Source: Candidatus Niyogibacteria bacterium RIFCSPLOWO2_12_FULL_41_13
GTDB taxonomy: Bacteria; Patescibacteriota; Minisyncoccia; 2-12-FULL-41-13
Assembly (NCBI GenBank): GCA_001821615.1
Contig: MHMS01000022.1
Span: 1 to 42,847 of the forward strand
DNA: 42,847 nucleotides
Direction of reading: 5' to 3'
Shown: piece by piece, positions 10,506-37,248 of the stretch
Numbering within the stretch: position 1 is the stretch's first letter
How the letters are laid out: each line of letters starts with the position of its first letter
The notes under the pieces: model-generated
What the model was told of the DNA's origin: nothing
The model's database searches: none
Seen by the model: the letters and a program-made list of their open reading frames with translations, nothing else
Made by a program: the position numbers and the translations under genes

Positions 10506-11097
10506 ATATTCTTTCAATTAAAACAATTTTCTTGGACGATTCAATTTGCCCTCGCGCGACTTTCAAAATATCCGGATTTATCGTATTGATAATCAGCCAG
10601 GCGGCAAAAGCCAAAATTAATCCGATTATAGCGTTTGTTATCATATCCCTGGCGGCTTTAATTTCCGCTTCGCTTCCCGCGGACGCAACCCAGCGAGCTC
10701 CGGCTATGACAATCATCAAAACCGCCAAAATCGCCGCCGCTGAAAGCATAAAAGGAAAAAGCCACTTATTGAGAAATAAAATAAAACCCACTCTTTCGCC
10801 CCCTTTAATTAAACCGGGCAAGTCGCTTGCGACGCCTGAAGTTTTTGCCCCGCCTTGTCCTCCCTGTTGAATTGTTCCTTTTGATTCTTCGTCCTTCAGT
10901 CTTTGAATTTCCTGCTCCGTTAGTTTAATATCCTCCTCTTTTAAATTTCCGCTTTTTATAATCCTTTCCAATTCTTGAATTATTCCTTGATTGGTTGTTT
11001 GGATTGGGGCATTAACTTCTATTTCATTTCCAAAAACAAAAGACGGGATTAAATAAAAAATCGCAATTATTAAAATTATCGTTGTTTTACTCCACAT
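10456..11097 (-). CDS. Type IV secretion system pilin-like protein (VirB2/TrbC-like, CPR 'T4SS pilin' type)
   Basis: Signal peptide, a Gly-rich linker, then two TM helices flanking AGARWVASAGSEAEIKAARDMITNAIIGL. The last ~16 codons (ICPVRQNRMLNLVSCVV) are encoded by repeat copy 1. Confidence 0.7.
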   Translation of the reverse strand: MWSKTTIILIIAIFYLIPSFVFGNEIEVNAPIQTTNQGIIQELERIIKSGNLKEEDIKLTEQEIQRLKDEESKGTIQQGGQGGAKTSGVASDLPGLIKGGERVGFILFLNKWLFPFMLSAAAILAVLMIVIAGARWVASAGSEAEIKAARDMITNAIIGLILAFAAWLIINTINPDILKVARGQIESSKKIVLIERICPVRQNRMLNLVSCVV

Positions 11098-12088
11098 TGA
11101 TTTTTACATTGGTTTCTTTTGTTTCCAGGGGATTATCATTATTTTCCACTATTAAGTTTAACAAAATGCCGCCCAAAAATCCCTCGCTGATTTTAAGGTT
11201 CAATAAATTAAACGGCGGTTCTTTTTTGGCGGCTACGCCGTTGGCAAACCAGTTATAAACCAAGAAAGGAGAAGAAAAATAATACGGCTCGGCGCGAAAA
11301 TCAATCTGGCTTTGCGAGGTCGCGCTAAAACTCTCCGCGAGCGCCCGGCTGAATTTTGGGCCCTGAAGGGGATGCTCTTCATAAATCAAAACTTTTGAAT
11401 CGCTCGCCGGAATAAATATCGTTTTAACCGCTTTAAATGTTTCTTTTGACGAACTTACCTCAACCCTTGCTTCCTGCCCCTGGAAAGCGATAATCGGAAT
11501 TTGAAATTCAAAACTTTGCCTGCCGAAACCCGATTGCTCCTGAAACAATTCATCGCCTAAAAACCATTTATAAATCAGATTCTTCGGCGAAATTCGCTTG
11601 CCTTCAAGAATAAAATGGGGCTCGGCGACTATTTTGACTTTTGAACGCAAGACGGGAAGCGCCTTGCCGGGATAAAAAACAGGCCTTGAAGTTTTTGCCT
11701 CCCACAATAAATCAACATCGGCGAGAATAAACGAGCGAACCCGTTCCAGCTTGTTTCCCGAAGGAGAAATAACAACTGCTTTTATTGTCTCCTCTCTGCC
11801 AAGCGAACCGGCTTTAAATTGATATTGTTTTTTGCCTGTTCCCTCTAAAACAATTTTGCCGTTATGAATCCAGGTGATTTTTGAACGGTCAAGGTCAAAA
11901 CTATTACTTGCCAAAGAAGCTGAAACTTCCGCGCCGGGAAAAGGAATATCCGGACTGACATCCAATGAAAAATCTTCTCCGGAGAACGAGGATATTGCGG
12001 GAAAACCCATTTGAGCGAAAACAAAAGAAAAGCCGAAAATAATCGCGATAAAAGAAAAAATTAAAACATTTGATATTTGATATTTCAT
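11087..12088 (-). CDS. Secreted hypothetical protein of the T4SS-like cluster
   Basis: N-terminal signal/TM segment and a beta-rich body. It is translationally coupled to its neighbours (ATGA overlap upstream, 11-nt overlap downstream). Confidence 0.6.
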   Translation of the reverse strand: MKYQISNVLIFSFIAIIFGFSFVFAQMGFPAISSFSGEDFSLDVSPDIPFPGAEVSASLASNSFDLDRSKITWIHNGKIVLEGTGKKQYQFKAGSLGREETIKAVVISPSGNKLERVRSFILADVDLLWEAKTSRPVFYPGKALPVLRSKVKIVAEPHFILEGKRISPKNLIYKWFLGDELFQEQSGFGRQSFEFQIPIIAFQGQEARVEVSSSKETFKAVKTIFIPASDSKVLIYEEHPLQGPKFSRALAESFSATSQSQIDFRAEPYYFSSPFLVYNWFANGVAAKKEPPFNLLNLKISEGFLGGILLNLIVENNDNPLETKETNVKINVE

Positions 12089-12570
12089 ATCGGAACCGCT
12101 TTCGCCGCTTTTTCAAGTTTTTCAAGAACTTTTTTGCCAAACAAGTTGTATAAAATAATCACTAAAACCATCGCAATAAAACTCGGAATAAATTCAATGA
12201 CGGGTATTAATTCCGCAATTATACCAGCAAACATCTGAAAGACAAAAGCCGGCGGACGGCTAAGTCCGGCAAGAATCACCCACAACCAAATAACTCCCCA
12301 CATTATAAAATCCAAAATATCGCCCAGAATCGGAATTTGGCCAATCACAAAAATGTCCAAAACATCGTTTGCCGCGGCGAAAAACAGCATCATTAAACCG
12401 GTAACAACTACTATCGCTTTTTTGCTCGCGCCGTCTCCTTCTGATTCTTTCGCTTCCGCCATTGCCAGCGCGCTTTCTCTCTGCTCCAACAAACTCGTCC
12501 TCTGGTCCGACGAACTCAACTTCTGCTCCAATAAGTTCAACGCTCTTTTTTGTTCTAATGGAATTGCCAT
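12085..12570 (-). CDS. Polytopic membrane protein of the T4SS-like cluster (hypothetical)
   Basis: Charged N-terminal 50 aa, then 3-4 hydrophobic helices. Its ATG directly abuts repeat copy 2. Confidence 0.6.
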   Translation of the reverse strand: MAIPLEQKRALNLLEQKLSSSDQRTSLLEQRESALAMAEAKESEGDGASKKAIVVVTGLMMLFFAAANDVLDIFVIGQIPILGDILDFIMWGVIWLWVILAGLSRPPAFVFQMFAGIIAELIPVIEFIPSFIAMVLVIILYNLFGKKVLEKLEKAAKAVPI

Positions 12571-12714
12571 ACCCAGTAAGACTAAATCGAATATTTCTTG
12601 CTAAATCCGCAAGTGGACATCCGATTATTATTATATTTAATTTTAATTTTGCAATAAAACATGTTTATACCACGCAAGAAACTGGATTTAGCATTCGATT
12701 TTGTCTTACTGGGC
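12571..12714. repeat. 145-bp element with terminal inverted repeats, copy 2
   Basis: Same termini and internal sequence as 10361-10505, with about 5-6 differences including one 1-nt indel. It lies between the virB4-like stop (12720) and the next start (12570). Confidence 0.9.
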
Positions 12715-12719
12715 ATAAA

Positions 12720-14558
12720 TTATGTTTTTTCATATTCTTCTTTTGCTTTTTTAATCGCCGCAATTTGGGACGGGTCGGTGGTGATAATCTGGTCTTCGGT
12801 GTAAGAACTGATGATTTTGATGGCGACATGTTTCAATCCGGCGTAAAAAAGCCCTTCGCCGACATCAGATTCAAGAAGCAAGAATTTTTCCTCCTCGGTT
12901 AAATTAAAAGTCTGTTGAACGACATCAATGGAAGCGGGCGACTGTTTCATCAGCAACTGCAAAGAAGAATTGGTCAGGATCGGCTTGCCGTAAGGCGAGT
13001 TCAAAAAATCGCCCACATCCTGGGTAATGGTGGTAAGCCCCAAATAATATTTTCTCGCTCTTTTGGCGATGCCGAACAAAAAAGAAGCGCTGTCTTCGTT
13101 CTTTATCATCCACCACGCCTCGTCAACTATGAGCACTCTTTTTTTAAGCTCGCGGCGAATCGCGTTCCAAACATGATGCATAATCAAAAACATCGCCACC
13201 GGCCGCAATTCGTTCTCCATATCCCGGATGGAAAAAGCGACGAACTTTTTCATCATATCCACATTGGTCGGCTGGTTTAAAAATCCCGCCCAGACTCCCT
13301 GGGTGTATTTTCTAAGCCGCACCGCCAAACTCTCGCCTCCCTCGGTGTTCGTCAAAACCAATTCCAAATCGGAAAGAACCGGAGGAATCGCTTTTGAAAA
13401 ATCGCTCTCCATCGTGATATTTCTCGCCGCGTAAGTTTCGGTGATTGCTGAATCCAAAATGCTGTCTTCTTCGGGAGTAAGACCGCCCAAAAGCAATCTG
13501 AAAAATCCGATGAGGTTGACAATCTGGCTTCGCAAAACATCGGACGGCGATTCGTCTTCTCTCGGCAAAGGAAGGTCAAAAGGATTGATGTGATGGTGGC
13601 TGGCGAGAGAAATGTTGAAATACTGGCCGTCAATCGTTTCGGCCAAATGTTCGTATTCCCGCTCGGGGTCAATAATGATTACTTCCGTGTCAAACATCAA
13701 AGAACGGAGAATTTCCAATTTGACAAAATAGGACTTTCCGCCGCCAGCCACTCCAAGAACAACCGTGTTGAAATTTTCCAGACTGAATCTGTCAAACAAA
13801 ATCAAACTGTTGTTGTGGCGATTAATGCCGTAAAGAATGCCTTTGTTTGAATTCAAATCAAATGAAATAAAAGGAAAAACGCTTGAAATCGGCTGGGTAT
13901 TAAGATTGATATACATTTTAAGAGTGTCCATTCCCAAGGGGAAAACGCTCTCTAGGCCCTCTTTTTGCTGAAACAGAGCCGGCTTTGAATAAATAAGTTT
14001 TGATTCCAGGATTGACCTGATTTCGCTTTCTTCTTTGTCCAACGCCTCTTTGTTGTCGGCATAAATAGTAATGTACAAACCAAACATAAAAAGCCGTTCT
14101 TCGGCTTGCTGAAGCCGGTCTCTTAATTCTTCAAGATTCTGATAAGCGGCGTCCAGCATCGGGTCCCTGACAAACCCTTTTTCTTCCCTTAAATGTATTT
14201 CCGAAAGAACTTCGGCGACTCTTTTTTGAAGCTGGCGCATCATAGCGGCGGTTTCAATCGGATGAATCTGCATTGAAATGTCAAAAACCTTGTCAAGATT
14301 TATTATCGGAAAAAACCAGCCGGTTGAGAGATAGCTCGGATAAGAAAAAATAAAAATCGTCTTGGCTATTTTCTCGCCCAGTTTAAGATAATTGGAACTT
14401 ATCTCCAGGGCCGACGGAGAAATAACATCGTGCAATTCCAAAACCCCGGCCTCGTATATTTCCTCGGGATAAACCGCGATGATTTTCTCCCGCTCTTTAT
14501 CTTCTTCTTTTTTTCCAAAAATTTTGCTTAATATCGCCATAATTTTTAAAATTTTCAA
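12720..14558 (-). CDS. virB4: VirB4/TrbE-family type IV secretion ATPase
   Basis: Walker A GVAGGGKSY and Walker B VLIVDEAW, with a VirB4-type N-terminal domain. The ORF begins at a TTG; the ATG at 14540 (MAILSKIF) is an alternative start. Confidence 0.85.
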   Translation of the reverse strand: MKILKIMAILSKIFGKKEEDKEREKIIAVYPEEIYEAGVLELHDVISPSALEISSNYLKLGEKIAKTIFIFSYPSYLSTGWFFPIINLDKVFDISMQIHPIETAAMMRQLQKRVAEVLSEIHLREEKGFVRDPMLDAAYQNLEELRDRLQQAEERLFMFGLYITIYADNKEALDKEESEIRSILESKLIYSKPALFQQKEGLESVFPLGMDTLKMYINLNTQPISSVFPFISFDLNSNKGILYGINRHNNSLILFDRFSLENFNTVVLGVAGGGKSYFVKLEILRSLMFDTEVIIIDPEREYEHLAETIDGQYFNISLASHHHINPFDLPLPREDESPSDVLRSQIVNLIGFFRLLLGGLTPEEDSILDSAITETYAARNITMESDFSKAIPPVLSDLELVLTNTEGGESLAVRLRKYTQGVWAGFLNQPTNVDMMKKFVAFSIRDMENELRPVAMFLIMHHVWNAIRRELKKRVLIVDEAWWMIKNEDSASFLFGIAKRARKYYLGLTTITQDVGDFLNSPYGKPILTNSSLQLLMKQSPASIDVVQQTFNLTEEEKFLLLESDVGEGLFYAGLKHVAIKIISSYTEDQIITTDPSQIAAIKKAKEEYEKT

Positions 14559-14650
14559 TTTCTAATTTTTATTAAATTTTCAATTTTTTAATTTTCAAAA
14601 TGTTTGTAAATTGGTTCATTGTAAATTGATTGAAAATTGATAATTGAAAA

Positions 14651-15322
14651 TTATTGTATTGATGGCGGCTTCCCCTTCTCCATCTCTCCGGGATTATACA
14701 ATCCGTAAAACAATTCTATCGCTTCTTCGGTGTTTAAAGGAATCGCCCTGACGCTGACGCGGGCCAATCCGGATATTGTTGATTCCATTCTCTGCCAAAG
14801 CTGGCCTCTGTATTCTTCAAATTTCGCTTCTTCTATTCTTTCGGCCCCTTTTTTGCCTGGCCTTAAAAGCTTCATTGCCCCGAAAATTCCTCCCATTATT
14901 CCGCCCGATTTAATTTCCAAAAACGGCGGGGTGTACGGGACGACGACATAAAAAGTTTTGCTGACGATTTTTTCCATCTCAACGAAATTTTTGACGAAAT
15001 CAATGTATTCCTTTGTCTGAATTTTAAGCAAATCGTTAACCTGCTTTTTTTCCGCTTCTCTTAGAAGGTCAAGATACGGCTCAATGTTCAGCCGCCGGGA
15101 AGAAATAAAAATCTGCAAAGAAAAATCCAGAGAATTCAAAAAACTCTGGTAGCCGGCGATAATCGCCTCCTGCTCGTCTCCCGACTTCAAGGCGAAATTA
15201 AGAGCCGAGCACATCAAAATCATCCGGAGAGAGCCGTCTTTTAAAATAATTATTCCGTCCCGAATTTCCTGAATCATAACTATCTCCTGGCTCGGTTTTG
15301 CTTTGGTTGAATCAATAGCCAT
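14651..15322 (-). CDS. T4SS-associated protein resembling the N-terminal domain of Gram-positive VirB4/TcpF-type ATPases
   Basis: The pattern IQEIRDGIIILKDGSLRMILMCSALNFALKSGDEQEAIIAGYQSFLNSL..LQIFISSRR resembles the N-terminus of Tn916 Orf16-like proteins as I remember it. It has no P-loop. Confidence 0.4.
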   Translation of the reverse strand: MAIDSTKAKPSQEIVMIQEIRDGIIILKDGSLRMILMCSALNFALKSGDEQEAIIAGYQSFLNSLDFSLQIFISSRRLNIEPYLDLLREAEKKQVNDLLKIQTKEYIDFVKNFVEMEKIVSKTFYVVVPYTPPFLEIKSGGIMGGIFGAMKLLRPGKKGAERIEEAKFEEYRGQLWQRMESTISGLARVSVRAIPLNTEEAIELFYGLYNPGEMEKGKPPSIQ

Positions 15323-15356
15323 AAATTTAAATTTTAGTCATTGGTCATTTTTTAAT

Positions 15357-15392
15357 TTGGAATTTGATTAGGCATTAGAAATTAGAAATTAG
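15357..15392. repeat. Intergenic heptamer-array module R1 (TTGGAATTTGATTAG-GC-ATTAGAAATTAGAAATTAG)
   Basis: 32/36 identical to 16246-16281. It lies between the PrgI-like stop and the next gene. Confidence 0.9.
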
Positions 15393-15803
15393 TTATTTGC
15401 CCCTGATTTCTTTTTTTATCTCCAGCGACCACGCCAAATCCTTCAACCTGCTTTCCGTCAATTTAGGCAAATTAATCATTCCCTCTTGTTTTGCTCCGGG
15501 AATCTGAATTTCCTTTTTTTCTTTTTTTACCCTTTTCCAGATGTAAAGTTTCGCGCCCGAAGAATAGTCAATCGCGTTGTTTAAAACATTGATAAACGGC
15601 TGGCCGTTCACCTTGTAAAAGGCGAGAGCGACGGCAAATCCGGCAAGCGGAATGACTACGATATAAGCCAGTATTCTGGGAAGAAAAGTCCAGGCGATGA
15701 AAACCAGCGCCCCTCCGCCAATAAGATAAATAAACTGCTTGAATGTAAGCGGCCCGAAAATCTTCGGCTCTACTTCTATGAATTGCGGAACATGGAATCT
15801 CAT
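15393..15803 (-). CDS. PrgI-family (VirB3-like) T4SS membrane protein
   Basis: The N-terminus MRFHVPQFIEVEPKIFGPLTFKQFIYL followed by two TM helices is the PrgI-family signature. Confidence 0.7.
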   Translation of the reverse strand: MRFHVPQFIEVEPKIFGPLTFKQFIYLIGGGALVFIAWTFLPRILAYIVVIPLAGFAVALAFYKVNGQPFINVLNNAIDYSSGAKLYIWKRVKKEKKEIQIPGAKQEGMINLPKLTESRLKDLAWSLEIKKEIRGK

Positions 15804-15810
15804 GTATTTT

Positions 15811-15847
15811 AAATTTCTAATTTCTAATTAACCTAATTTCTAATCAA
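15811..15847. repeat. Intergenic heptamer-array module L, inverted relative to R1/R2
   Basis: Its reverse complement reads TTGATTAGAAATTAGGTTAATTAGAAATTAGAAATTT. Together with 16246-16281 it brackets the four-helix-bundle gene as an inverted repeat. Confidence 0.85.
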
Positions 15848-15874
15848 TAATCAATGATTTAAAATTTTCAATGA

Positions 15875-16246
15875 CTAATTATTTTTGCTGGAACGCACAA
15901 TTGCGTTAAAAATAAGATTTAATTCTTTTGCCTCTTGCCATAATTTCCTTGCTTCTTCTTTTAATTCTAAAATTGTCACCGCTATCATTCTCAGCCAATG
16001 TTTTGTTTCTCTTGCTTCTTTTTTGCAAATTCCAATTTTATGATTAAAATCTTTCTTTGATTCAGCATCATCGGCCTCGCAATAATTAGCTCCTATACTT
16101 GTTCCGGCTTTTACTAACTGATTTATTAATGGTTTTGTAACTTCATTTATTGGAATCTTTTTAGCGAATCTAATTATCTCTTCTCCAAATTTAGCTGTTC
16201 TTTCCTCTAAATCAAAATTCTTTTTTGTTATTTTTTCATTTGGCAT
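15875..16246 (-). CDS. Four-helix-bundle protein (23S rRNA intervening-sequence protein / Avd-like family)
   Basis: Signature LVKAGTSIGANYCEADDAESKKDF..KIGICKKEARETKHWLRM, which matches the S23-IVS family. Confidence 0.8.
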   Translation of the reverse strand: MPNEKITKKNFDLEERTAKFGEEIIRFAKKIPINEVTKPLINQLVKAGTSIGANYCEADDAESKKDFNHKIGICKKEARETKHWLRMIAVTILELKEEARKLWQEAKELNLIFNAIVRSSKNN

Positions 16247-16281
16247 TGGGATTTGATTAGATATTAGAAATTAGGAATTAG
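16246..16281. repeat. Intergenic heptamer-array module R2
   Basis: TTGGGATTTGATTAGATATTAGAAATTAGGAATTAG, a direct repeat of 15357-15392. Confidence 0.9.
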
Positions 16282-16288
16282 TCATTTA

Positions 16289-16915
16289 TTATAAGGTTTC
16301 TCTATACGGGTCCGTTCCGCCGGGATATTTCTCTTCCTTTTTCGCTTGCTCAACTTCTTCTTTTATTTCTCTGTATTGTTTTGGCGCGCGCTGAATTCCA
16401 ATTTCAACAATTTCTTTTTCTTCAGCCGGCTTTTGCTCAATAATCGGAGATTCAACTATCGGAGGTTCAACCAGAGGTTTAACCTCCGAAATTGGTTGCT
16501 GAATTTCCTGCGCTAGGGGCTTAATTTCTTCTTTTATTGTCGGCTTTTCAACCGTCGGAGGTTTAACCTCCGACGGTTCTTCTTCTCCGATTTTATGGAG
16601 TTTTTTGAGCGATTCCCGAACCGGTCCGAAAATCTGCTCATTAACATCTTTGGCGATGCTTTTCGCTTTTTCCGCATCAACCCCCAGCCGTTCAGAAAGA
16701 TTTTTTATAAAATCTTTGGGGTGGGTAAGGCCTAACATCACTCTGCCGATTTCATTACCCAAATCTCCCATTTTGTCAACATATAAGCCGTATTTATTGC
16801 TGATATTCATTATTTTGTCCGTAACTTCTTCGCTAAACATAGCATCCTTTAAATCAGGAGGAAGATTCTTATATCTTTTTATTAATTGTTCTTGGTCAAT
16901 TTGTGGCATATTCAT
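16289..16915 (-). CDS. Hypothetical protein with a helical N-domain and a Pro/Glu/Lys-rich C-terminal region
   Basis: 208-aa ORF within the cluster. The C-terminal half is low-complexity (EVKPPTVEKPTIKEEIKP...). Confidence 0.55.
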   Translation of the reverse strand: MNMPQIDQEQLIKRYKNLPPDLKDAMFSEEVTDKIMNISNKYGLYVDKMGDLGNEIGRVMLGLTHPKDFIKNLSERLGVDAEKAKSIAKDVNEQIFGPVRESLKKLHKIGEEEPSEVKPPTVEKPTIKEEIKPLAQEIQQPISEVKPLVEPPIVESPIIEQKPAEEKEIVEIGIQRAPKQYREIKEEVEQAKKEEKYPGGTDPYRETL

Positions 16916-17037
16916 ATTATTGATTATTTTAATAAATTTTAGTTTTATTGTTTCACACCATATTCATCTCCGCCAAGTCCAGTTTCAGGCTCTCGCATTT
17001 GTGTTCCTTGTTTTTTTGTTTTAACATTGCCGCCAAG

Positions 17038-17119
17038 ATAACTCCCATACAATTCTTCTCCTCTTTTTGTCTTTAGCTAAAATAACTCCCATACAATTCT
17101 TCTCCTCTTTTTGTCTTTA
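17038..17119. repeat. 44-bp tandem duplication at the 3' end of the TrbL/VirB6-like gene
   Basis: ATAACTCCCATACAATTCTTCTCCTCTTTTTGTCTTTA occurs at 17038-17075 and 17082-17119, giving a 44-nt period. Confidence 0.9.
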
Positions 17120-19091
17120 AAAGATTAGCCATACTTTGATTGCCTATGTTTTCAAAAGCATTGGCCGCTGTTTTGATATCGTTAACCGTAACTCCAGCTG
17201 ATTTCCCGATGACGTCAAGGTTCCTTCGGAATCTCGTAAGCGCCTCTCCTCCTTCCTCGGCAACATCAGCTATTGTGCTTGGCCTCATATTCTTAAAAGA
17301 CTTTAGTAATGCCGGAGATTTTGGTTCAGCCCATTGGTATCCCATACGTTCAATAACGCCGGCTGACCTGCCTGCTGATTTCATCTTTTCAATAGATTGC
17401 TCGATATATTTAGAACTCAAGCCAGTCATATCTTTTCTTGAAGCTAAAACTTCCTCAATTGCTATTCTTTCTTCAGGAGTAGTAAGACGTCGTTCGTGTA
17501 TTTTCTTCAGGTCGTAATTGCCGTATTGGTTAAATATTTTACTGCGCTCTTCAATACCTTTCTGAATGCCGCCTCTTATTTCCGCCATTTGACCAGGCGC
17601 CGCCCAACCCAATGTTCTTTCAAGTATTCCGCCTTTATCAATTGCCTTACCCGTTTTTTCATCGAGTTTAAACTTGCCCTTCTCGTCAAGCTCCGCCGGC
17701 CTTGTTATTCTGCCCTTAAGCGCGCCCCATCCTCTTTCTACTCCGTATTGCGGCCAATAACTCGCGCCTTGCCACGCTTTGCCGCCCGCCCACTTGCCCG
17801 CAATCCCCACCTTGCTGTTCATATAGCCCTGGGCTTGGCTCGCGTAAGAATAAATCGCTCCGGTTCCTTTTTCAGCAAGAGATCTCGCGAAAACAAGCGC
17901 GGCGTTAAAAACTATTATTAACAAAATGTATCTTGCAACGAATGTAATCAATCCTTCTTGGGTATTTATCATTGAAATATCCAGAGGGTTGTTCGCAGTA
18001 GGGAAAACATTGTTTATATTTAGCGATAAATGAACCGCAAGACTCAACATAAAAATAAGCACTGGCAAAAATATTGATTGCCTTATAAGAATCATCATCC
18101 ATTCTTTGCCATATCCTTCGGTTGCCGGCAAAGCCCACAAAAATAAAGCTGCCGGAGCAAGAATCATCGCAAGCCAAAGAGTGACTATTCTTAAAAAAAG
18201 CATTATCGCCGCTACTAAAAATGTAATGGCGGCGGTTATAAATACGAAAATCCCTAAAATTGTACCAATGCTGATGCTTGCGGCCGTTGCTATGAAACTT
18301 GCGTTTTGGTCAAGTTTTGCGTCGCGAATTTTCTGAGCAGAAAGTCCTTCCATCATCATGCTGGAAATAGAAACTTTCCTAAGATTTGCATTTACTAATT
18401 TCTCCTCTAGTGTAAGAGTTCTACCAAAAACACTATTGCCAACCCGACCCTCTCTTACCAATCGCGTCTGAAGTTTCTCAATTCTTGTTGTATAAATATA
18501 ATCAGCAAGACTATTTGAAAATTCTATGACATAACGCGAAAACAAAAGAGAAAAATTAATAAGCAAAATTATTATTATCAGGGTGGGCAGGGCTTTTTTA
18601 ACGCCGTAACTTTCCTGGCCAATAATTGTTCCGATGGCGATTATTAAGAGAATGAAAATAAACAATAAATTTACAGTGTCTCTGACATAAGTCCAGCCAG
18701 AATAAACAAATCCGCCAAAATTAATCGGGTCAAAAGTGGTTGGTTCTAAATTAAAATCAAGCACCCAATCAAATACTAGTCCAGCAAGTGCAACCAACCA
18801 ACTCGCAAGCCAGAGAAAAAAAGACAAAAAGTGCGCAAGACCCCAATTAATCCAGTCGCCAACCTCTCCGAGCGCAGCACTTACAACCTTTCCCGGAACT
18901 CCTGCAACCCAATTCCATATTTCCTTAACATTATCCCAAACCCACGACCCAGAATCGTTTTGGGGTGGCGGAGGTTGATTTTGGGGTGGACCTTGGGCAA
19001 AAACGCTAAACGGAAACAAATTGAACAACAAAACAAAAATTAACAAACCGATAATTATCTTTCCGGAAAAAATTTTAGATTTTAAATTCAT
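17073..19091 (-). CDS. TrbL/VirB6-like polytopic T4SS membrane protein
   Basis: 672 aa with a signal/TM segment, a Pro/Gln-rich stretch, at least 6 TM helices and a soluble C-terminal domain. It neighbours the VirB4/PrgI-like genes. The C-terminus is affected by the 44-bp duplication. Confidence 0.65.
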   Translation of the reverse strand: MNLKSKIFSGKIIIGLLIFVLLFNLFPFSVFAQGPPQNQPPPPQNDSGSWVWDNVKEIWNWVAGVPGKVVSAALGEVGDWINWGLAHFLSFFLWLASWLVALAGLVFDWVLDFNLEPTTFDPINFGGFVYSGWTYVRDTVNLLFIFILLIIAIGTIIGQESYGVKKALPTLIIIILLINFSLLFSRYVIEFSNSLADYIYTTRIEKLQTRLVREGRVGNSVFGRTLTLEEKLVNANLRKVSISSMMMEGLSAQKIRDAKLDQNASFIATAASISIGTILGIFVFITAAITFLVAAIMLFLRIVTLWLAMILAPAALFLWALPATEGYGKEWMMILIRQSIFLPVLIFMLSLAVHLSLNINNVFPTANNPLDISMINTQEGLITFVARYILLIIVFNAALVFARSLAEKGTGAIYSYASQAQGYMNSKVGIAGKWAGGKAWQGASYWPQYGVERGWGALKGRITRPAELDEKGKFKLDEKTGKAIDKGGILERTLGWAAPGQMAEIRGGIQKGIEERSKIFNQYGNYDLKKIHERRLTTPEERIAIEEVLASRKDMTGLSSKYIEQSIEKMKSAGRSAGVIERMGYQWAEPKSPALLKSFKNMRPSTIADVAEEGGEALTRFRRNLDVIGKSAGVTVNDIKTAANAFENIGNQSMANLLKTKRGEELYGSYFS

Positions 19092-25537: not shown

Positions 25538-25621
25538 CCGGGTGTAGCTTAATTAAGAAGTTCGCGCAAAGCGCCGGAAATATTTCGGAAAATGCGGGTT
25601 CAAATCCTGCCGCCCGGACCA
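25538..25621 (+). tRNA. Atypical tRNA-like gene (canonical acceptor and T arm plus CCA; non-canonical D/anticodon region; identity unresolved)
   Basis: Acceptor CCGGGTG/CGCCCGG (one G.U), discriminator A, encoded CCA. T arm GCGGG-TTCAAAT-CCTGC and a 4-nt variable region. The arm at the anticodon position (25573-25589) has loop AAATATT, and there is an extra GCGC-AAA-GCGC hairpin. An intrinsic terminator follows. Confidence 0.45.
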
Positions 25622-30804: not shown

Positions 30805-30840
30805 TCTGTATTTGCGGCGAATTATGTTGTAAAAAAACCT

Positions 30841-31195
30841 AGCGTTGTTTACATCTTCCGCGCTGTCCGGCAAATTCGCTAAGAAAACCCTCGCGCAGTC
30901 CGACCCGCTTCGCCGGAGCTTCAGCGAGGCGAGGCGGGCAGGGTACCCCAGCCCTGCCTCTTTCAAGAACCGGTTGTCGCTCGTTCCAGCGACTCGCGCA
31001 ACCTGCCCTCTCGGCGATTTTGTTCCCGCAAAGCGGGAAACCAAGCCAAAATCGCCTGCGAGAGCTTCTTTCAAGAGGCAGGACTGGGGTGAGCGAGGAC
31101 GAGCGGGAGCGCAAATTCCTCGCTGGGGAATTTGATAGCGTGTTTTCGCGCGAATTTGCCGGACAGAAGAAAATATGAAAGAATGTAAACAACGC
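30841..31195. ncRNA. G+C-rich element of about 355 nt built from nested helices (candidate large structured RNA, or a palindromic insertion); strand undetermined
   Basis: Terminal helices 30842-30854/31183-31195 (13 bp) and 30863-30879/31150-31166 (17 bp perfect), then 30946-30960/31075-31089, 31008-31021/31048-31064, an apical hairpin at 31022-31041 and three side hairpins. My hand count gives about 57% G+C, against A+T-rich flanks. Confidence 0.5.
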
Positions 31196-31212
31196 AGCTA
31201 ATTCTTACAAAT

Positions 31213-32733
31213 ATGTCTATCAAAATTTCCTCGGCTCAAATCGTCGGTTTGGAAGGAAAAATTATTGAGATAGAGGTTGATTTAACGCGGGGGCTTCCGG
31301 CTTTCTCCATCGTGGGCCTTCCCGATAAAGCGATTGAAGAATCAAAAGAAAGAATTTCTTCGGCGGTTAAAAACAGCGGTTTTAATCCTCCCCAGAGAAA
31401 AAACCAAAGAGTGACCGTTTCTTTGGCGCCGGCCGACCTTAAAAAGGAGGGGCCGGGTTTTGATTTGGGAATCGCCCTCGGATATCTTCTCGCCTCAAAA
31501 CAGCTCAACTTTAATGCCGATAAAAAATTATTTTTGGGAGAACTCGCTTTAAACGGCTCAATAAGAATAATCAGGGGAGCGCTGGCTTTGGCTCAAAGCG
31601 CCCTCAAAGCCGGTTTTGAAGAAATTTACCTGCCAAAAGGCAACGGCAAAGAAGCGGCTTTTATTGAAGGAATTAAGGTTTACGAAGCGGGCTCGTTGCT
31701 GGAAATTGCCAGCTGGTTTGAAGGAAAAATAAAACCCGAGCCGCTCCCGAAGCAAAAAATTCAAGAAAACGCTTCGGAATATTCCGTTGACCTTTCGGAT
31801 ATTCGCGGCCAAGAGCACGCGAAACGCGCTCTGGAAATAAGCGCGGCCGGAAGCCACAATCTTCTGATGGTTGGGCCCCCGGGCACGGGCAAAACAATGC
31901 TCGCCAAGGCGCTGCCCTCTTTGCTTCCGCCTCTTTCTTTTGAAGAAGCGCTGGAAGCGACCAACATCCATTCAATCGCCGGAACATTGGACAAGCCGCT
32001 TTTAACTTTCCGGCCCTTCCGCAATCCCCATCATACCGCTTCTTATATTTCAATTATCGGAGGAGGAACGATTCCAAGGCCCGGGGAAATAACAATGGCG
32101 CACCGCGGCGTTTTATTTCTGGACGAATTCCCGGAGTTTGACCGGAGAGTGATAGAGTCGTTGCGCCAGCCGATTGAAGACGGCGTAATCGCCATTTCCA
32201 GAGCAAAAGGCGTTATTGTTTTTCCGGCCCGAATAATTCTTGTCTGCGCGATGAATCCCTGTCCTTGCGGCAATCTCGGCTCTAAAAACAAATCTTGCCT
32301 GTGTCCGGCCTCCGCCATTTTCAAGTACCAAAGAAAAATATCGGGGCCTATCGCCGACCGGCTTGACCTTTTTGTTGAGGTCGGTCGGATTGAACACGAA
32401 GAACTTTCAAAGAAAAACTCCGCGCCCACTTCGGCGGAAAAACAAAAATTGATTTTAAAAGCGAGAGAAGTCCAAAAAGAACGTTTTAAAAACCGGAAAA
32501 TTTTAACCAATGCCGAAATGAGTAGCCGCGACTTGGAACAATTCGTTCCCCTGGACCGCGATTCCCAGCGCGCTTTAAATTTGGCGGCAAGCCGCATGGA
32601 CCTCTCTGCCCGCGCTTATCATCGAGTCATTAAAATAGCGAGGACAATCGCCGATTTGGAAAATTCAGAGAGCGTCCGCGAAAACCACATTGCCGAGGCC
32701 TTGCAATATCGGCCAAAACAAAGTTTGATTTAA
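31213..32733 (+). CDS. comM: YifB/ComM-family Mg-chelatase-like AAA+ ATPase
   Basis: Lon-like N-domain (GLPAFSIVGLPDKAIEESKERI), Walker A GPPGTGKTM, Walker B LFLDEFPEF, and the C-terminal RAYHRVIKIARTIADLE helix. Confidence 0.9.
   Translation: MSIKISSAQIVGLEGKIIEIEVDLTRGLPAFSIVGLPDKAIEESKERISSAVKNSGFNPPQRKNQRVTVSLAPADLKKEGPGFDLGIALGYLLASKQLNFNADKKLFLGELALNGSIRIIRGALALAQSALKAGFEEIYLPKGNGKEAAFIEGIKVYEAGSLLEIASWFEGKIKPEPLPKQKIQENASEYSVDLSDIRGQEHAKRALEISAAGSHNLLMVGPPGTGKTMLAKALPSLLPPLSFEEALEATNIHSIAGTLDKPLLTFRPFRNPHHTASYISIIGGGTIPRPGEITMAHRGVLFLDEFPEFDRRVIESLRQPIEDGVIAISRAKGVIVFPARIILVCAMNPCPCGNLGSKNKSCLCPASAIFKYQRKISGPIADRLDLFVEVGRIEHEELSKKNSAPTSAEKQKLILKAREVQKERFKNRKILTNAEMSSRDLEQFVPLDRDSQRALNLAASRMDLSARAYHRVIKIARTIADLENSESVRENHIAEALQYRPKQSLI
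32710..32733 (+). repeat. 24-bp direct-repeat core CGGCCAAAACAAAGTTTGATTTAA (copy at the functional comM end; attL-like)
   Basis: Identical to 34997-35020. Confidence 0.9.
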
Positions 32734-32770
32734 TATTATCGTATAGAATCATAATTAAAATATTTTGCTC

Positions 32771-32799
32771 TTGACATTTTCCTGCGGTTCTGATAATAT
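32771..32799 (+). promoter_or_regulatory. Near-consensus sigma70 promoter (TTGACA-17 nt-TAATAT, with TGn extended -10)
   Basis: TTGACA at 32771-32776, TG at 32791-32792, TAATAT at 32794-32799. Confidence 0.65.
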
Positions 32800-32936
32800 T
32801 TCGGGTAGAAAATCGCACCTTGAGTTACATTTCCACTTCAAAATAGAAAGCGCACAAAACCGAGCTATTGGGGCTCGATGATAGCACATTTTATTAGTTT
32901 TATTAGTTTAAACCCGAAAAAGAAAGAAAGGTGAAT

Positions 32937-33461
32937 ATGATGGGCGATAGAGAAGATTACAAAGAAGATTGCAAAAGAAAAGCTGCCTATGCGCTAGAAC
33001 AGATGAGAAGAGGTACGATTGGTTACCGATTTGCTCTTTGGTGTATTACAGAGAATCTTCGAGAGGGGAGGTGGTTCCTTTTTGAAATAGGAACCAGGCC
33101 GGCTGAACTTAATAAGCTCCGGATAGAAGACTGTAAAAAATCAGTTCAGAGCTGGATAGACGCGTTGCAATTTGGATTTTTTGCTGAACCGGACGAGGCT
33201 ATTAAATATATTAGAAATAGACTCGGGAAGAGCGGTCTTTCACTTTTTGATGCCGTCAACATCAATGAAGAAAAACTAGAAGAGTTCCGGGTTAAAGCTT
33301 GGGAGATGGTTGCTCGCAATGGAGTCGACATTTTTGAAAAACAAAAATGTCCTCTGACCGCTTGTAGTATTCTTAAGGCAGCCGAGAGAGGCGGATTTCC
33401 ACTTTCCAATATTGGTGTCGATGAAAAGGAACTTGAAAAAGTTCTATCCGAATACAGATAA
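32937..33461 (+). CDS. Orphan hypothetical protein (174 aa, predicted all-helical), cargo of cassette 1
   Basis: AAGGTGA Shine-Dalgarno at 32928-32934, then ATG ATG. I recognise no family. An intrinsic terminator follows. Confidence 0.6.
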   Translation: MMGDREDYKEDCKRKAAYALEQMRRGTIGYRFALWCITENLREGRWFLFEIGTRPAELNKLRIEDCKKSVQSWIDALQFGFFAEPDEAIKYIRNRLGKSGLSLFDAVNINEEKLEEFRVKAWEMVARNGVDIFEKQKCPLTACSILKAAERGGFPLSNIGVDEKELEKVLSEYR

Positions 33462-33506
33462 GACGCCAACAAAAAAGAGTCCAATAGTCCTCCAGCCGCA
33501 AATAAA

Positions 33507-33550
33507 GAACCTCTGAGAGAGCATGGCTTCGCCGAGGTTCTCTTTTTTTT
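33507..33550 (+). terminator. Intrinsic terminator of the cassette 1 ORF
   Basis: AGAACCTC ... GAGGTTCT 8-bp stem followed by CTTTTTTTT. Confidence 0.8.
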
Positions 33551-33705
33551 ATTTGAGCGGTGAATAAATAAAAGAATAAGGATTTTCTTAACCATAATAG
33601 TCGAGGCAAGGTTTTCCAGTCTCGGCTATTTTTATTTGTTAATTCACTCATTGCTTTTTCTAATCCTTCCTTTGCTAAACCTCTACTCTCTTCATCCTTC
33701 ATCCA

Positions 33706-33783
33706 ATGGAAAAATCACAAAACATCACTGAAGCCCATATAAGCGAGGCCTTGCAGTATCGGCCAAAGCAGAATTTGATTTAA
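33706..33783 (+). pseudogene. Orphan, diverged comM 3'-end fragment (last ~25 codons)
   Basis: Translates as MEKSQNITEAHISEALQYRPKQNLI*, against the comM C-terminus LENSESVRENHIAEALQYRPKQSLI*. Nucleotide similarity continues about 30 nt past the stop. Confidence 0.8.
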
Positions 33784-33889
33784 AATTATCATATAGAATC
33801 ATAATCAAGATATTTCTGAATAATGTTGATTTGTTTAGGACTTCTAGAAAATTAACTAAGTAGTCCAAAATTCAAATTGGAAATTTTGC

Positions 33890-33918
33890 TTGACAAAAAA
33901 TTATAAAAGAAGTATAAT
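33890..33918 (+). promoter_or_regulatory. Perfect consensus sigma70 promoter (TTGACA-17 nt-TATAAT)
   Basis: TTGACA at 33890-33895 and TATAAT at 33913-33918. Confidence 0.7.
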
Positions 33919-33955
33919 TAAAATAACAAAAGCTCTTTAATACCACTTGCAATTC

Positions 33956-34090
33956 GGTAGTCATAGCCAAAAAATACTCACTCATGGTGTTTTCTGGCTA
34001 TGACTACCATAGCGATGGTCCTTTGGCAATTCTGCCGCATGGCGCGGCCTCTGCTCAATGGGCAGAGAAAAATCCCGACAACAGTCGGAA
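33956..34090 (+). promoter_or_regulatory. Structured 5' leader of the cassette 2 ORF (candidate cis-regulatory RNA)
   Basis: 13-bp perfect stem GGTAGTCATAGCC/GGCTATGACTACC (33956-33968/33996-34008). Mutually exclusive pairings CTGCC/GGCAG and CTCTGC/GCAGAG lie within 34032-34067. Hairpin CCGAC-AACA-GTCGG lies just before the AGGAG. Confidence 0.5.
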
Positions 34091-34101
34091 AGGAGAGAAT
34101 C

Positions 34102-34713
34102 ATGAAGTACTCGAATCTGAACCTTAGAACGATTGAAGCGATAGTGAACAAGCTCGGCGGCATGGACGGCGTGAAGTGTTTTCTGTCAGGCGAGCTTACG
34201 GTTAAGAAGAAGGAGAGAGAATGCATCTTCGCTGTCTGGAAGACCATTAAGCTCGGCACTGGGCTGAAGACCGCCGATAACTTCCGCCGCGCACTCAAAG
34301 CAGAAGGCAATATCATCGGCGACTGGGGGGCGAGCAAGATTCTCGGCAGGAAGGAGTTCACCGTGGCAAAGGAGGAAACCGAAGTGGACCTCGTTGCGGT
34401 GTCTATTGTTGATGATCTCGGCTTCGTGAACGGCGCCACACAGAAGGAGATCTATGAGAAAGCTTTCAAACTTGGTCTGAAGCTTTGCCCCGCCGAAGTC
34501 GGTCCCCAGCTACGATTGCAGTTTAAGAATCAGCCCAAGGGCGAGTGGCTTCTTATTGGTATGGAACCTATCTATGACTCGGATGGCGACCCTTACGTGT
34601 TCTACGTTGGACGCGGCCGTGATGGTCTGTGGTTGGACGGCTATACCGGCGACCCCTACGACTACTGTAACAGCGGCGATAGCTGTTGGGTGTTCGTCCG
34701 TCCTCGCAAGTAG
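34102..34713 (+). CDS. Orphan hypothetical protein (203 aa), G+C-rich, cargo of cassette 2
   Basis: AGGAG lies 6 nt upstream of the ATG at 34102, so the longer ORF from 34000 would run through the leader stem. Two sampled 60-nt lines are about 55% G+C with GC3-rich codons. I recognise no family. Confidence 0.65.
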   Translation: MKYSNLNLRTIEAIVNKLGGMDGVKCFLSGELTVKKKERECIFAVWKTIKLGTGLKTADNFRRALKAEGNIIGDWGASKILGRKEFTVAKEETEVDLVAVSIVDDLGFVNGATQKEIYEKAFKLGLKLCPAEVGPQLRLQFKNQPKGEWLLIGMEPIYDSDGDPYVFYVGRGRDGLWLDGYTGDPYDYCNSGDSCWVFVRPRK

Positions 34714-34769
34714 CACTTAGGACTTTGTTTCTTTGATCTCCTGACCTTTGAAACTGAGTCCTTTGACCT

Positions 34770-34811
34770 CCCCGCATCTTGGCTTCGGCCTTGGCGCGGG
34801 GATTTTCTTTT
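34770..34811 (+). terminator. Intrinsic terminator of the cassette 2 ORF
   Basis: CCCCGC ... GCGGGG stem enclosing GGC-TTCG-GCC, followed by ATTTTCTTTT. Confidence 0.75.
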
Positions 34812-34996
34812 AATAGAATAAAAACGACAGTAGGTGAATATGCGGAAAATCATGGTTTTCCGCTACCGAATCCAGTAGACAAGGAATAGTTTGCCAACTT
34901 ATGGAGATTTAACCTCTATAGTTAATTTTTTGATAATTTGCGGGGTTTACAATAATCCGACTTTTTTTATCCTAGTTTGTTTATAAACCTTACAAT

Positions 34997-35020
34997 CGGC
35001 CAAAACAAAGTTTGATTTAA
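34997..35020 (+). repeat. 24-bp direct-repeat core, orphan copy (attR-like; presumed ancestral comM end)
   Basis: Identical to 32710-32733. Its TAA (35018-35020) overlaps the stop (35017-35019) of the convergent gene. Confidence 0.9.
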
Positions 35021-37248
35021 AGCAGATTATTCACGCTTTCAACGAATTTATCAACTTCCGGCTTTAGTTCCGGCTTTAGTTTTTGCGCTTCTTTGGCGTA
35101 AAAAATCGCCTTGTCTTTGTTTTTTAATTGAGCTTCGGTTTCAGCCGAAAACAACAAAGAATTTATTTGAGTTTCTTTGTCTTTGATTTGAATTGATTCC
35201 CGCAGAGCGATTCTTAAAAACTTTTCCGCTTCTTTCAAATTTCCCTGCTTCAAGCTCTGTCTGCCCCATTTTAAAAATTCCTGGGCCGAGGGCCAAACTC
35301 CAAGCCCGGCGCTCTCTCTGATAACCTGCCAGCTGTTTTCGTATTCGCCGGCCAAAACATAAAAAGTGACAAGAGGGTCGTATAACTGCGGCGAAACGGA
35401 TAAAAATTCAGAAATTTTCTTTCCGGCTTCGCGAGCTTTTCCAATATCCTTTTTTAAAAGATACAGTTCGGCGAGAGCAAGGCGGCTTTGGACATAATTC
35501 GGCCCTATTTCAATCGCCTTTTTGTACGCTGATTCGGATTCATCATAGCCGTTTCCCGCTATCATCGCCCGAATAGCCAAAAGCTTGCCGTAAAAAATCA
35601 GGGGCCTAATGTTTAAAGGGTCGCGCTCGGTTTCTTTTTTCATTTCCAAAATAGAACGGTCAAGCAAAACGCTGAAATATCCTTTATTCAAAACATTGCC
35701 CGAAGCAGAAAGCTGAATCAAAAAATTGCCCAACTGCTCTCTTACTTCGGTCAATCCGAAAGAATTAATATCAAGGGCTTGCTCAAAATTATTGGTTATA
35801 ATTTCCGGAGTCTGTCTCTGGCCCGCGCTTTTTAAAGAAGCAATAATCTTTGATGATTGTTTGAGCGGTTTTAAATTTAAATAAAAAACCAGAAAAATTG
35901 ACATTCCAATCGCTCCAAAAATCAAAACGTATTTAAACGATTCCGGCAGATAAAATTTTATTTCTTGAGCGCGTTCTTTAGCGGTGTAAAAATACAAAAA
36001 TCCAAAAAGCGAGGCTACCAAAAAATAGGTCGCCAAAGAATCAAAAACAAAAAATCCCTGAACAAAATAAGCGGCGAAAAATCCAAAAGCAAGGATAATT
36101 TGGTTATTGTTTAAAATCTTTTCCCGGCGAATTTTCAAGAGCAACAAACCAACGCTAAAAAGAATAAATAAATAAGCAAGAAAGCCCAAAGCCCCCGCCT
36201 CCGCGAGCCACTGCAAAGGAGTATTATGAGTCCTGTCAAACCACGGCTCGTTGCCGTAAAGCCGAGGATTATAATTGCGGGCGAAAGCGTCAATAAAATT
36301 GTCCTGACCCCAGCCGAAAACCGGCTTTTGGGTCCATGATTTAAGAGCCATTTTCCAAATCATAAATCTTGCCTGAACCGTCTGCTCAAAAATTGAAATT
36401 GAAGCGAAGCGATTCAACAGCGGCCTGGATTTTATAAAATCGCTTCCTTGAAAAAAAATCAAAAGAAGAGGAATCAGCAAGGCGGTTAAAAAAATTCCGG
36501 CAAAAATAAACTTTTTTCGCGGCTTTTCCGCCTCAAAAAATTTTAAAAAGAGAATCAAACCAAGGCCGGCTAAAAATCCGAGCATCGCTCCTCTTGTTTC
36601 GGTAAAAAAGAAAATCGGCAATTCAAAAAGAAAAATCGCGCCGTAGGCGATTTTTATTTTCTTGCTTGCGGTTTGTAAATAATAAAAAGCTAAAATAAAA
36701 AAATGAATAAGCAGATAACTCGCCAAATAAATGGGGTTTCCGACAGTTGAAAAAACCCTGCTGTCCGAAGAACCCTGAATCCAGCCGAATTTCTCAAAAT
36801 AACCGTATCCCGCGACAATCAAGCTTACAAAAATTGAAATGTGAAAAAATATGAACCAGTCGCGCGATGTCCTAAAAACCGAAATAAGCATCAAGAAATA
36901 AGCGAGGAGATGCAAATGAAGATTCAATCCTTCCATTCTTTCATAATTAGACCAAAAACTTTTATAAGGATTGGCGCCGAAAATATCGGCTAAAAACAAA
37001 GCAAAAACGAAAATTAAAATCGCGTAAAGCAGGATATTTTTCCGGGGAAGATATTTTGCCGGATTTAAAATCAAAAGTCCCAACCAAAAACCGAATAAAA
37101 TTTCAATCAGAATTCTGAAAAAAAATCCCTTGCCGGTAATGTAAGGGAAAAACATTGAACTGGAAATTATCAAAACCAAAAAAGGCGTTAAAAATAATCC
37201 GCCTTTTACGAGCCAATCAAATGCCGCGATTAAACCTGAATTTCGCAT
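35017..37248 (-). CDS. O-antigen ligase/polymerase-like polytopic membrane protein with a C-terminal TPR domain
   Basis: More than 10 TM helices and a Wzy_C-like loop (RTHNTPLQWLAEAGALGFLAYLF). The C-terminal ~280 aa contain TPR-like repeats. Confidence 0.7.
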   Translation of the reverse strand: MRNSGLIAAFDWLVKGGLFLTPFLVLIISSSMFFPYITGKGFFFRILIEILFGFWLGLLILNPAKYLPRKNILLYAILIFVFALFLADIFGANPYKSFWSNYERMEGLNLHLHLLAYFLMLISVFRTSRDWFIFFHISIFVSLIVAGYGYFEKFGWIQGSSDSRVFSTVGNPIYLASYLLIHFFILAFYYLQTASKKIKIAYGAIFLFELPIFFFTETRGAMLGFLAGLGLILFLKFFEAEKPRKKFIFAGIFLTALLIPLLLIFFQGSDFIKSRPLLNRFASISIFEQTVQARFMIWKMALKSWTQKPVFGWGQDNFIDAFARNYNPRLYGNEPWFDRTHNTPLQWLAEAGALGFLAYLFILFSVGLLLLKIRREKILNNNQIILAFGFFAAYFVQGFFVFDSLATYFLVASLFGFLYFYTAKERAQEIKFYLPESFKYVLIFGAIGMSIFLVFYLNLKPLKQSSKIIASLKSAGQRQTPEIITNNFEQALDINSFGLTEVREQLGNFLIQLSASGNVLNKGYFSVLLDRSILEMKKETERDPLNIRPLIFYGKLLAIRAMIAGNGYDESESAYKKAIEIGPNYVQSRLALAELYLLKKDIGKAREAGKKISEFLSVSPQLYDPLVTFYVLAGEYENSWQVIRESAGLGVWPSAQEFLKWGRQSLKQGNLKEAEKFLRIALRESIQIKDKETQINSLLFSAETEAQLKNKDKAIFYAKEAQKLKPELKPEVDKFVESVNNLL

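Follow-up and report, generated by a model that had tools for sequence, protein, structure and literature searches.

The window analysed here (positions 1 to 42,847 of contig MHMS01000022.1 from Candidatus Niyogibacteria bacterium RIFCSPLOWO2_12_FULL_41_13, the whole stretch of 42.8 kb) belongs to a member of the Patescibacteria and carries an islet of two small units directly behind an intact comM gene. The islet may consist of the remnants, or of non-autonomous relatives, of integrative elements that target the comM end, a reading on which our confidence is evenly divided between acceptance and doubt. Its second unit evidently carries a fragment of a diversity-generating retroelement (DGR) locus of the Patescibacteria, comprising the promoter, the leader, the target gene and the first RNA helix.

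The 2,287 bp of the islet (32734-35020) are bracketed by the copies of a perfect 26-nt direct repeat, ATCGGCCAAAACAAAGTTTGATTTAA, at 32708-32733 and 34995-35020; no such repeat match was obtained in any of 100 shuffles of the window. Two units of 1,050 and 1,237 bp make up the islet, each headed by a comM 3' end that is followed by a module of ~32 nt. A third copy of the comM end (33760-33783) shows 3 mismatches in 24 nt and is part of a 109-nt block (33707-33815), which is 80% identical to 32657-32765 and corresponds to the last 25 comM codons and ~32 nt downstream. Comparison of the two units revealed no similarity outside this block. A preliminary description of this DNA had reported a perfect direct repeat of 24 bp, a diverged third comM end between its copies and a shared module after two of the three ends. 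The repeat is present where it was placed, with a length of 26 nt instead of 24, and both the third end and the module have been confirmed (Table 1).

The closest relative of this comM is P0123, a protein with 86% identity encoded on a 10.5-kb contig (L025). The gene order in L025 is the same as in the window, with pheS, pheT, a dksA-like gene, comM, a convergent Wzy_C gene and M23 peptidase genes. The site is empty in this relative, where the overlap of comM and the Wzy_C gene is 4 nt, and the junction ...CTTGATTTAAAGCAAATTATTCACGC... of L025 and ...TTTGATTTAAAGCAGATTATTCACGC... of the right copy in the window represent the same comM/Wzy_C junction. The empty site of L025 indicates that 32734-35020 was inserted in the lineage of the window and that the right copy is a relic of the ancestral comM end; relative to that site the segment is evidently a lineage-specific insertion. 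The preliminary description had already taken the right copy for the ancestral comM end, which L025 bears out, and had proposed a search of relatives for sites at which the comM stop abuts the convergent gene. L026, whose comM is 75% identical, has unrelated DNA 3' of comM and its contig stops 510 bp further on, and more distant comM relatives show other synteny. The islet region (32600-35100) is 100% identical across 19 contigs (L001-L019) from about a dozen samples, the sources being ENA k141 and ANAN16 scaffolds, JGI, an NCBI metagenome-assembled genome and Logan. Because these identical contigs come from several assembly sources, the assembly artefact that the preliminary description had considered is excluded. 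The full array is present in all 24 contigs that have an identical comM.

Codon by codon, the middle comM end differs from the native one by 7 synonymous and 12 non-synonymous changes, and over the last 15 codons the proportions of synonymous (pS) and non-synonymous (pN) differences are 0.56 and 0.08. The residues that are nearly invariant among 117 comM homologues are all kept in the middle copy except at the first codon (Leu to Met), which lies at the breakpoint, and the replaced residues are mostly natural variants at those positions among the homologues. Since this is a pattern of purifying selection, in which a dead duplicate would not evolve, the middle copy is evidently foreign and stems from a comM that was functional in a different lineage. 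The presence of one sequence three times within 2.3 kb might also go back to an old tandem duplication that arose locally at the comM end and then diverged where it lay, or to an assembly artefact. We consider this explanation hardly credible in view of the purifying selection on the comM frame of the middle copy, the empty site in the relative, the homology of unit 2 to DGR loci of other genomes (see below) and the presence of the same sequence in 19 independently assembled contigs.

The module copies at 32735-32765 and 33785-33815 are 90% identical. They differ at 5 of 32 positions, as against a divergence of ~0.5 at the synonymous sites of the adjoining comM end, and past the module the similarity is roughly 45% (hand count). 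The lower divergence of the module than of the comM synonymous sites, together with the drop in similarity beyond it, suggests that the module is under constraint. Module copy 2 contains a short imperfect inverted repeat, ATTATCAT-ATAGA-ATCATAAT.

The three junctions of the islet differ in composition. In the left copy 26 of 26 nt are native and the module follows; in the middle copy foreign sequence extends to TTTGATTTAA and there gives way to the module; the right copy begins with ~10 nt that form an indel-bearing, poor imitation of the comM end, followed by 26 native nt and the native flank. Placed side by side, the junctions locate all exchange points in or directly after TTTGATTTAA, and the pattern fits two successive crossovers of attachment-site (att) type in the last ~10 bp of comM. 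According to the reading that we favour, units 1 and 2 would be the remnants of two integrative elements, related to each other, for which the comM 3' end served as attachment site. Each would have brought a surrogate comM end of its own, adjoined by the module as an arm. The elements would have been circular and would have integrated successively by site-specific recombination, with the crossover in or just after TTTGATTTAA. Either order would be possible, with unit 2 first and unit 1 into attL, or with unit 1 first and unit 2 into attR. Their own recombinase would since have been lost or would never have been present, and unit 2 at least would have undergone an internal deletion or the capture of broken DNA. 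The present state would be that of a fixed accessory islet with two genes expressed from their own promoters and no active cassette system.

The origin of unit 2 has been traced through the homologues of ORF2, which number 1,273 Patescibacteria proteins of ~198 aa and are conserved except in the C-terminal 40 residues; no Pfam domain was found in any of the 1,273. ORF2 itself gave nothing against PADLOC, PHROGs and Pfam or in a sequence profile search of the PDB. When one genome per species was taken, 79 homologue loci were obtained, almost all labelled Patescibacteria, and in 34 of them a reverse transcriptase matching RVT_1 lies ~0.9 kb downstream. The order in these relatives is target gene, structured RNA, template repeat, Avd gene and reverse transcriptase, the template repeat being a second copy of the 3' end of the ORF2 homologue between the target gene and the reverse transcriptase. 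Of 281 mismatches between template and variable repeats over 13 loci, 240 are at adenines of the template (25 of 25 in L093), and bAvd (PF22296) lies on the opposite strand between template repeat and reverse transcriptase in L093, L053, L065 and L044. The reverse transcriptase, the template repeat, the adenine mismatches and Avd identify the loci of the relatives as canonical DGRs. Roux et al. (2021, PMC8144416) have described DGR clade 2 as cellular, confined to the candidate phyla radiation (CPR), with targets that have no known domains, and the ORF2-type loci match this clade.

The full-length identity of ORF2 to the targets in complete DGR loci is 45-66%, and the template repeat of L031 aligns to 34576-34709 of the window. 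In BLAST the homology of the window to DGR loci begins at 33890 with the -35 box, where the matches from L044 and L093 start, and ends exactly at 34877 in more than 20 DGR loci, whose own sequence continues as a conserved RNA. This RNA is ~220 nt long and lies 5' of the template repeat, 33 of its 51 predicted pairs show compensatory changes, and no family was found for it in Rfam. The RNA at L093:6585-6805 has equivalents in more than 20 loci and carries its own promoter; its position 5' of the template repeat in the Patescibacteria distinguishes it from the spacer RNA of the Bordetella phage DGR. The position 34877 was also considered as a recurrent natural boundary and rejected, as only L055 breaks within 6 nt of it and the other loci without a reverse transcriptase end elsewhere. 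For the GC-rich hairpin 3' of ORF2 (34770-34811), a role as terminator or possibly as the flanking hairpin of the DGR variable region is proposed.

No reverse transcriptase was detected in the window, either by tblastn with the L093 enzyme (only E > 1) or as RVT_1 in a Pfam scan of the window ORFs, and there is neither a second copy of 34576-34709 in the window nor an Avd gene near ORF2. ORF2, including the variable-region equivalent, is identical in all 19 contigs. Since template repeat, Avd and reverse transcriptase are all missing from the window and the gene is invariant in these contigs, ORF2 is apparently an orphaned and frozen DGR target, and its protein is no longer diversifiable from the locus in the window. 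The AlphaFold (AF2) model of ORF2 has a pLDDT of 79, and its top Foldseek matches are C-type lectin domains, at a weak E of about 0.2. The nearest Avd-family gene in the window (PF05635, 23S_rRNA_IVP, 15875-16246) lies 18 kb off, with no reverse transcriptase next to it. That the RNA gene is truncated and followed by a 117-nt filler (for which no match was found in any locus or collection searched) shows that unit 2 is not pristine, and the units have been read as remnants or non-autonomous relatives on this account.

Homologues of ORF2 without an adjacent reverse transcriptase are common and occur in many contexts, including behind argS (there in a stack of three genes), behind a TsaE-like gene and within the pairs NUDIX/DUF2178, VTT-domain/pgk and Cu-oxidase_4/Sua5. 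As these contexts are unrelated, the ORF2 gene evidently moves. The closest relatives of ORF2 sit after a TsaE-like gene (assigned by eye from the P-loop motif) or after a 999-aa gene. A leader hairpin is present upstream of 30 of 80 ORF2 homologues. Copies at L020:4869-4917, L020:6949-6997 and L084:2125-2171 lie between promoter and start codon with a conserved stem sequence, and the hairpin also precedes ORFs that are not homologous to ORF2; an RNA element and a palindromic operator are both conceivable.

Unit 1 encodes ORF1, a helical-repeat protein. No match was found in Pfam, PADLOC or PHROGs and no close relatives were found; an exhaustive HMMER search gave 87 proteins including ORF1 itself, with remote relatives that are 25-39% identical. 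The consensus of the repeat is ...LxxLRxGT..Y....L....G.SLxDIGTSEEELExLR, and among PDB entries the profile matches helical repeat proteins that were designed. The family (...DIGTSEEELExLR...) is undescribed; its proteins contain 2 to 5 or more repeats of ~55 aa, and one relative has 4,837 aa. The preliminary description had assigned a promoter and a terminator to each unit, and this stands, with sites that score 10/12 (with TG) and 12/12 and two readable hairpins with a T-run. It had also called both ORFs orphans, which the 1,273 homologues of ORF2 and the 87 proteins listed for ORF1 contradict, and its idea of self-expressed orphan genes stacked in the manner of an integron is not retained, since unit 2 is a broken-off DGR piece ending at 34877 and ORF1 has a remote family. 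From its proposal of two successive site-specific integrations, the insertion relative to L025, the foreign middle end and the junction pattern have been upheld, and the integron-like cassettes have been given up.

Several observations weigh against an origin from integrative elements. The surrogate gene ends are unequal (77 nt and about 36 nt), which also fits a less orderly recombination, and a microhomology, CCTTRCAAT, is present at the right junction. A donor for the middle comM end was not found, as its C-terminus is absent from the 120 closest comM proteins; in the donor search, comM was upstream of the ORF2 homologue in none of the ORF2-containing loci found. The module was not found in the other genomes, metagenome contigs, phages and plasmids searched, so that the idea of an element family rests on two copies in one strain. 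No excised, single-unit or other-cargo variant occurs among the 24 contigs with an identical comM, and a Pfam scan of ~42 ORFs in the window gave no integrase, transposase, relaxase or resolvase and no Phage_integrase domain. The last result agrees with the preliminary description, which had seen no recombinase in the window; the different cargo between the same repeats and the further occurrences of the core with the module for which it had proposed to search were not seen. The module pattern ATTATCRTATAGAATCATAAT matched JGI metagenome contigs 3 times and viral contigs once, with every match in an unrelated context and attributable to chance; a fuzzy search with <=4 mismatches in 90 other loci gave nothing relevant, and none of the comM relatives, close or distant, has the module.

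The main rival to this reading is natural transformation followed by homology-facilitated illegitimate recombination, or by Campbell-type single crossovers of circularised fragments, which would dispense with a dedicated recombinase. Chunks of related genomes (comM, module and other genes) would have been anchored by comM-end homology and joined at microhomologies, leaving partial duplications of the gene end. Such a course would agree with the arbitrary points at which the foreign comM end starts (33706/33707) and the DGR piece stops (34877), with the microhomology of ~10 nt at the right junction, with the unequal repeat lengths (109 and 26 nt), with the imperfect local direct repeats around the complete DGR loci L053 and L044, between which no recombinase is found, and with the competence/pilus-type genes (PilM, comM) encoded in the window. 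We nevertheless regard it as unlikely. A crossover with a diverged donor should alter synonymous sites, whereas the last 26 nt of the working comM are identical to the ancestral relic at 26 of 26 positions. Both module copies begin exactly after the comM stop codon and the module is better conserved than synonymous sites, and a prior event would be needed to place the module beside comM in at least two lineages.

Intact and active non-autonomous gene-end cassettes of ~1 kb, comparable to integron cassettes or to the Xer-exploiting elements treated below and mobilised in trans by a chromosomal recombinase, e.g., a Xer-like one, have also been considered. Tandem stacking, the promoter and terminator of each unit, the lack of a recombinase nearby, the precise restoration of comM and the short imperfect inverted repeat in the module would all be expected of them. 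We hold this explanation to be improbable, as the truncated RNA gene and the 117-nt filler of unit 2 are debris, the units share only the 109 nt, the module did not turn up in any other data searched, the population shows no variation across 19-24 contigs, and neither an attC-like hairpin nor a recognisable 11-6-11 dif architecture (by eye only) is present. It is equally doubtful that the comM 3' end and the 32-nt module form the attachment site of non-autonomous mini-elements of ~1 kb in the Patescibacteria, with a recombinase (Xer-like or other) encoded elsewhere; such mini-elements could each consist of one self-expressed gene, a surrogate gene end and arbitrary cargo, DGR pieces included. 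Transposition is not indicated, as there are no terminal inverted repeats at 32734, 33783 or 35020 and no inverted repeats at the unit ends, and the duplications measure 26 and 109 nt, unlike those of a transposon, an insertion sequence (IS) or a miniature inverted-repeat transposable element (MITE). For unit 2, an origin as a retro-copy, made by a DGR reverse transcriptase from a read-through transcript, was considered as well. BLAST of 32657-35020 against phage and plasmid collections gave no match, and no Rfam family was found in the islet (gathering threshold on the window; E-value level on 32600-35100).

Table 1. Positions of the features of the islet and of its flanking genes in the window
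Feature	Position	Strand	Basis or remark
comM (YifB-type Mg-chelatase-like AAA ATPase), intact	31213..32733	+	Pfam Mg_chelatase 5e-92, ChlI, Mg_chelatase_C; orthologues in syntenic L025, L026
Left 26-nt repeat copy	32708..32733	+	Last 7 codons + stop of comM; attL-like core
Module copy 1, TATTATCGTATAGAATCATAATTAAAATATTT	32734..32765	+	~32 nt right after comM stop; absent from L025, L026, L112, L113
Promoter-like site of unit 1, TTGACA-17-TAATAT with TG	32771..32799	+	Score 10/12, extended TG
ORF1, 174 aa, three ~55-aa helical repeats	32937..33461	+	Repeat seen in alignment of family
Terminator-like hairpin + T-run after ORF1, AGAACCTC...GAGGTTCT	33506..33550	+	Read from sequence
Middle copy, foreign comM 3' end, 25 codons + stop, (M)EKSQNITEAHISEALQYRPKQNLI*	33707..33783	+	80% nucleotide identity to 32657-32733
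Module copy 2	33784..33815	+	~32 nt right after middle comM end
Consensus promoter TTGACA-17-TATAAT	33890..33918	+	Score 12/12; left limit of DGR-locus homology
5'-leader hairpin of DGR target genes, GTCATAGCC...GGCTATGAC	33956..34008	+	22-nt arms; leader fold z = -7.55
ORF2, 203 aa, apparently orphaned DGR variable (target) protein	34102..34713	+	Variable-region equivalent about 34576-34709
GC-rich hairpin CCCCGC...GCGGGG + T-run, 3' of ORF2	34770..34811	+	Read from sequence
Start (~52-56 nt, first helix) of DGR-linked structured RNA, cut at 34877	34822..34877	+	80-90% identical in L093, L048, L031, L100
117-nt filler	34878..34994	+	Last ~10 nt CCTTACAAT resemble comM 32698-32709
Right 26-nt repeat copy, ancestral comM end	34995..35020	+	TAA overlaps Wzy_C gene stop; attR-like; same junction at L025 empty site
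Wzy_C/TPR membrane protein (O-antigen-ligase-like), convergent, ancestral comM neighbour	35017..37248	-	Pfam Wzy_C 1e-21

Other DGR-related loci have shown further arrangements. In L020:4758-7770 (GCA_964469605.1) a three-gene stack lies between the argS stop, which it directly follows, and a convergent alr. Its members are a homologue of ORF2, an ORF of 288 aa that contains a perfect internal tandem duplication of 225 nt, and an ORF of 213 aa. The genes are separated by a ~290-nt block, 91-92% identical, that contains stop-proximal sequence, terminator, promoter and leader hairpin, and no reverse transcriptase was found within 5 kb of the stack. In L053 (5735-5777 / 8596-8638; 43 nt, 95%), where the repeat spans the stop of an upstream NUDIX gene, and in L044 (9-60 / 3125-3176; 52 nt, 92%), imperfect direct repeats of local DNA lie on either side of a complete DGR locus, and no recombinase occurs between the repeats. 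A repeat in L065 (5571-5700 / 9491-9620; 130 nt, 98%) is confounded by a glycosyltransferase paralogue, and with this one counted a survey of about 25 DGR loci with a reverse transcriptase gave just 3 clear cases of flanking direct repeats. The repeats of these three loci are a hint that whole DGRs move with a slice of their flank, and by those of L053 and L044 the DGRs of the Patescibacteria may have spread in this way. In L049:6274-7209 the 3' part of a DGR target and the start of the downstream RNA are duplicated in tandem, the copies being identical. L074, L037, L068, L091 and L062 carry a DGR of the Patescibacteria type and are titled Bryobacterales, Gammaproteobacteria or Bacteroidetes, which is likely due to mis-binning or mislabelling.

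A second lineage-specific insertion of 408 bp (30805-31212) lies between the dksA-like gene and comM. It has a GC content of 0.51-0.57 and is nearly palindromic, with inverted arms of 17 nt (perfect) and 25-28 nt (imperfect) and fold z values of -9.7 on one strand and -11 on the other. The insertion is absent from L025 and L026, in which the gap between the dksA-like gene and comM is 5-19 nt. Because 3 contigs begin within it and L005 has unrelated DNA upstream of it, it is possibly present in several copies and may be a multi-copy MITE-like element. Elsewhere in the window, 10456-19091 on the minus strand contains a type IV secretion/conjugation-like cluster with a type IV secretion system (T4SS) pilin, a TraG/VirB4-like ATPase, PrgI and TrbL/VirB6; the 23S_rRNA_IVP (Avd-family) gene at 15875-16246 is part of it, and no relaxase or reverse transcriptase was seen there. 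At 25538-25618 Rfam reports a tRNA (42 bits, 81 nt) that was not reported by ARAGORN and whose length may reflect a long variable arm or an unusual structure.

The islet offers a clean example, at the level of junctions, of how a tiny and streamlined genome of the Patescibacteria acquires accessory genes where a conserved gene ends, with no damage to that gene. It also shows that genes for DGR variable proteins can be severed from the retroelement, moved and kept frozen. Promoter-bearing "orphan" genes between repeats should be compared with distant relatives of their cargo before they are called a new cassette system. If a recombinase acting in trans were found, the comM end would be, to our knowledge, the first attachment site defined in the phylum.

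Among known systems, the Patescibacteria DGRs (clade 2, PMC8144416) resemble unit 2 in that ORF2, the promoter, the leader hairpin and the start of the RNA are homologous. They differ in having a template repeat, Avd and a reverse transcriptase, whereas the copy in the window is cut within the RNA gene and invariant in 19 contigs. The AbaR-type islands of Acinetobacter baumannii are Tn7-like transposons that interrupt comM internally, with a 5-bp duplication and their own transposition genes. They have comM as a target in common with the islet, which in contrast leaves comM intact and shows no terminal inverted repeats. Integron cassettes likewise form ordered single-gene units at a fixed site, but they are mostly promoterless, carry an attC hairpin and lie beside intI and attI, whereas the units of the islet have strong promoters of their own; no integrase and no inverted repeat at the unit ends were found in the islet. 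Integrative mobile elements exploiting Xer (IMEX), such as CTX-phi, TLC and the gonococcal island, and the pdif modules of Acinetobacter exploit the host XerC/D, and their boundaries are 28-bp dif-like sites that have a XerC arm and a XerD arm. The islet is similar to these in having no recombinase of its own, in tandem stacking at one chromosomal site and in its small self-contained modules, but it lies at a gene end, whereas they are associated with dif-like sites and the terminus dif. By eye, the islet shows no convincing match to the dif consensus of E. coli or B. subtilis, which may not be that of the host, and the window contains no Xer gene. Islands and integrative elements may also insert in the 3' ends of genes and supply a surrogate gene end, as at tRNA genes or in the case of ICESt3 at fda. 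The islet shares with such elements the repeats of the att core at both ends, the intact target, a diverged element-borne gene end, hybrid tandem junctions and an empty site; it differs from them in having no integrase at either end and in the size of its units, only 1.0 and 1.2 kb. We know of no gene-end element described at a comM 3' end that overlaps the stop of a convergent gene, or in the host phylum. Overall, the islet, which has no integrase of its own, resembles a small genomic island in tandem form at an att site in a gene end. It is neither integron nor transposon nor AbaR-type island in comM, and it looks like a small decayed insertion rather than a new integron-like system.

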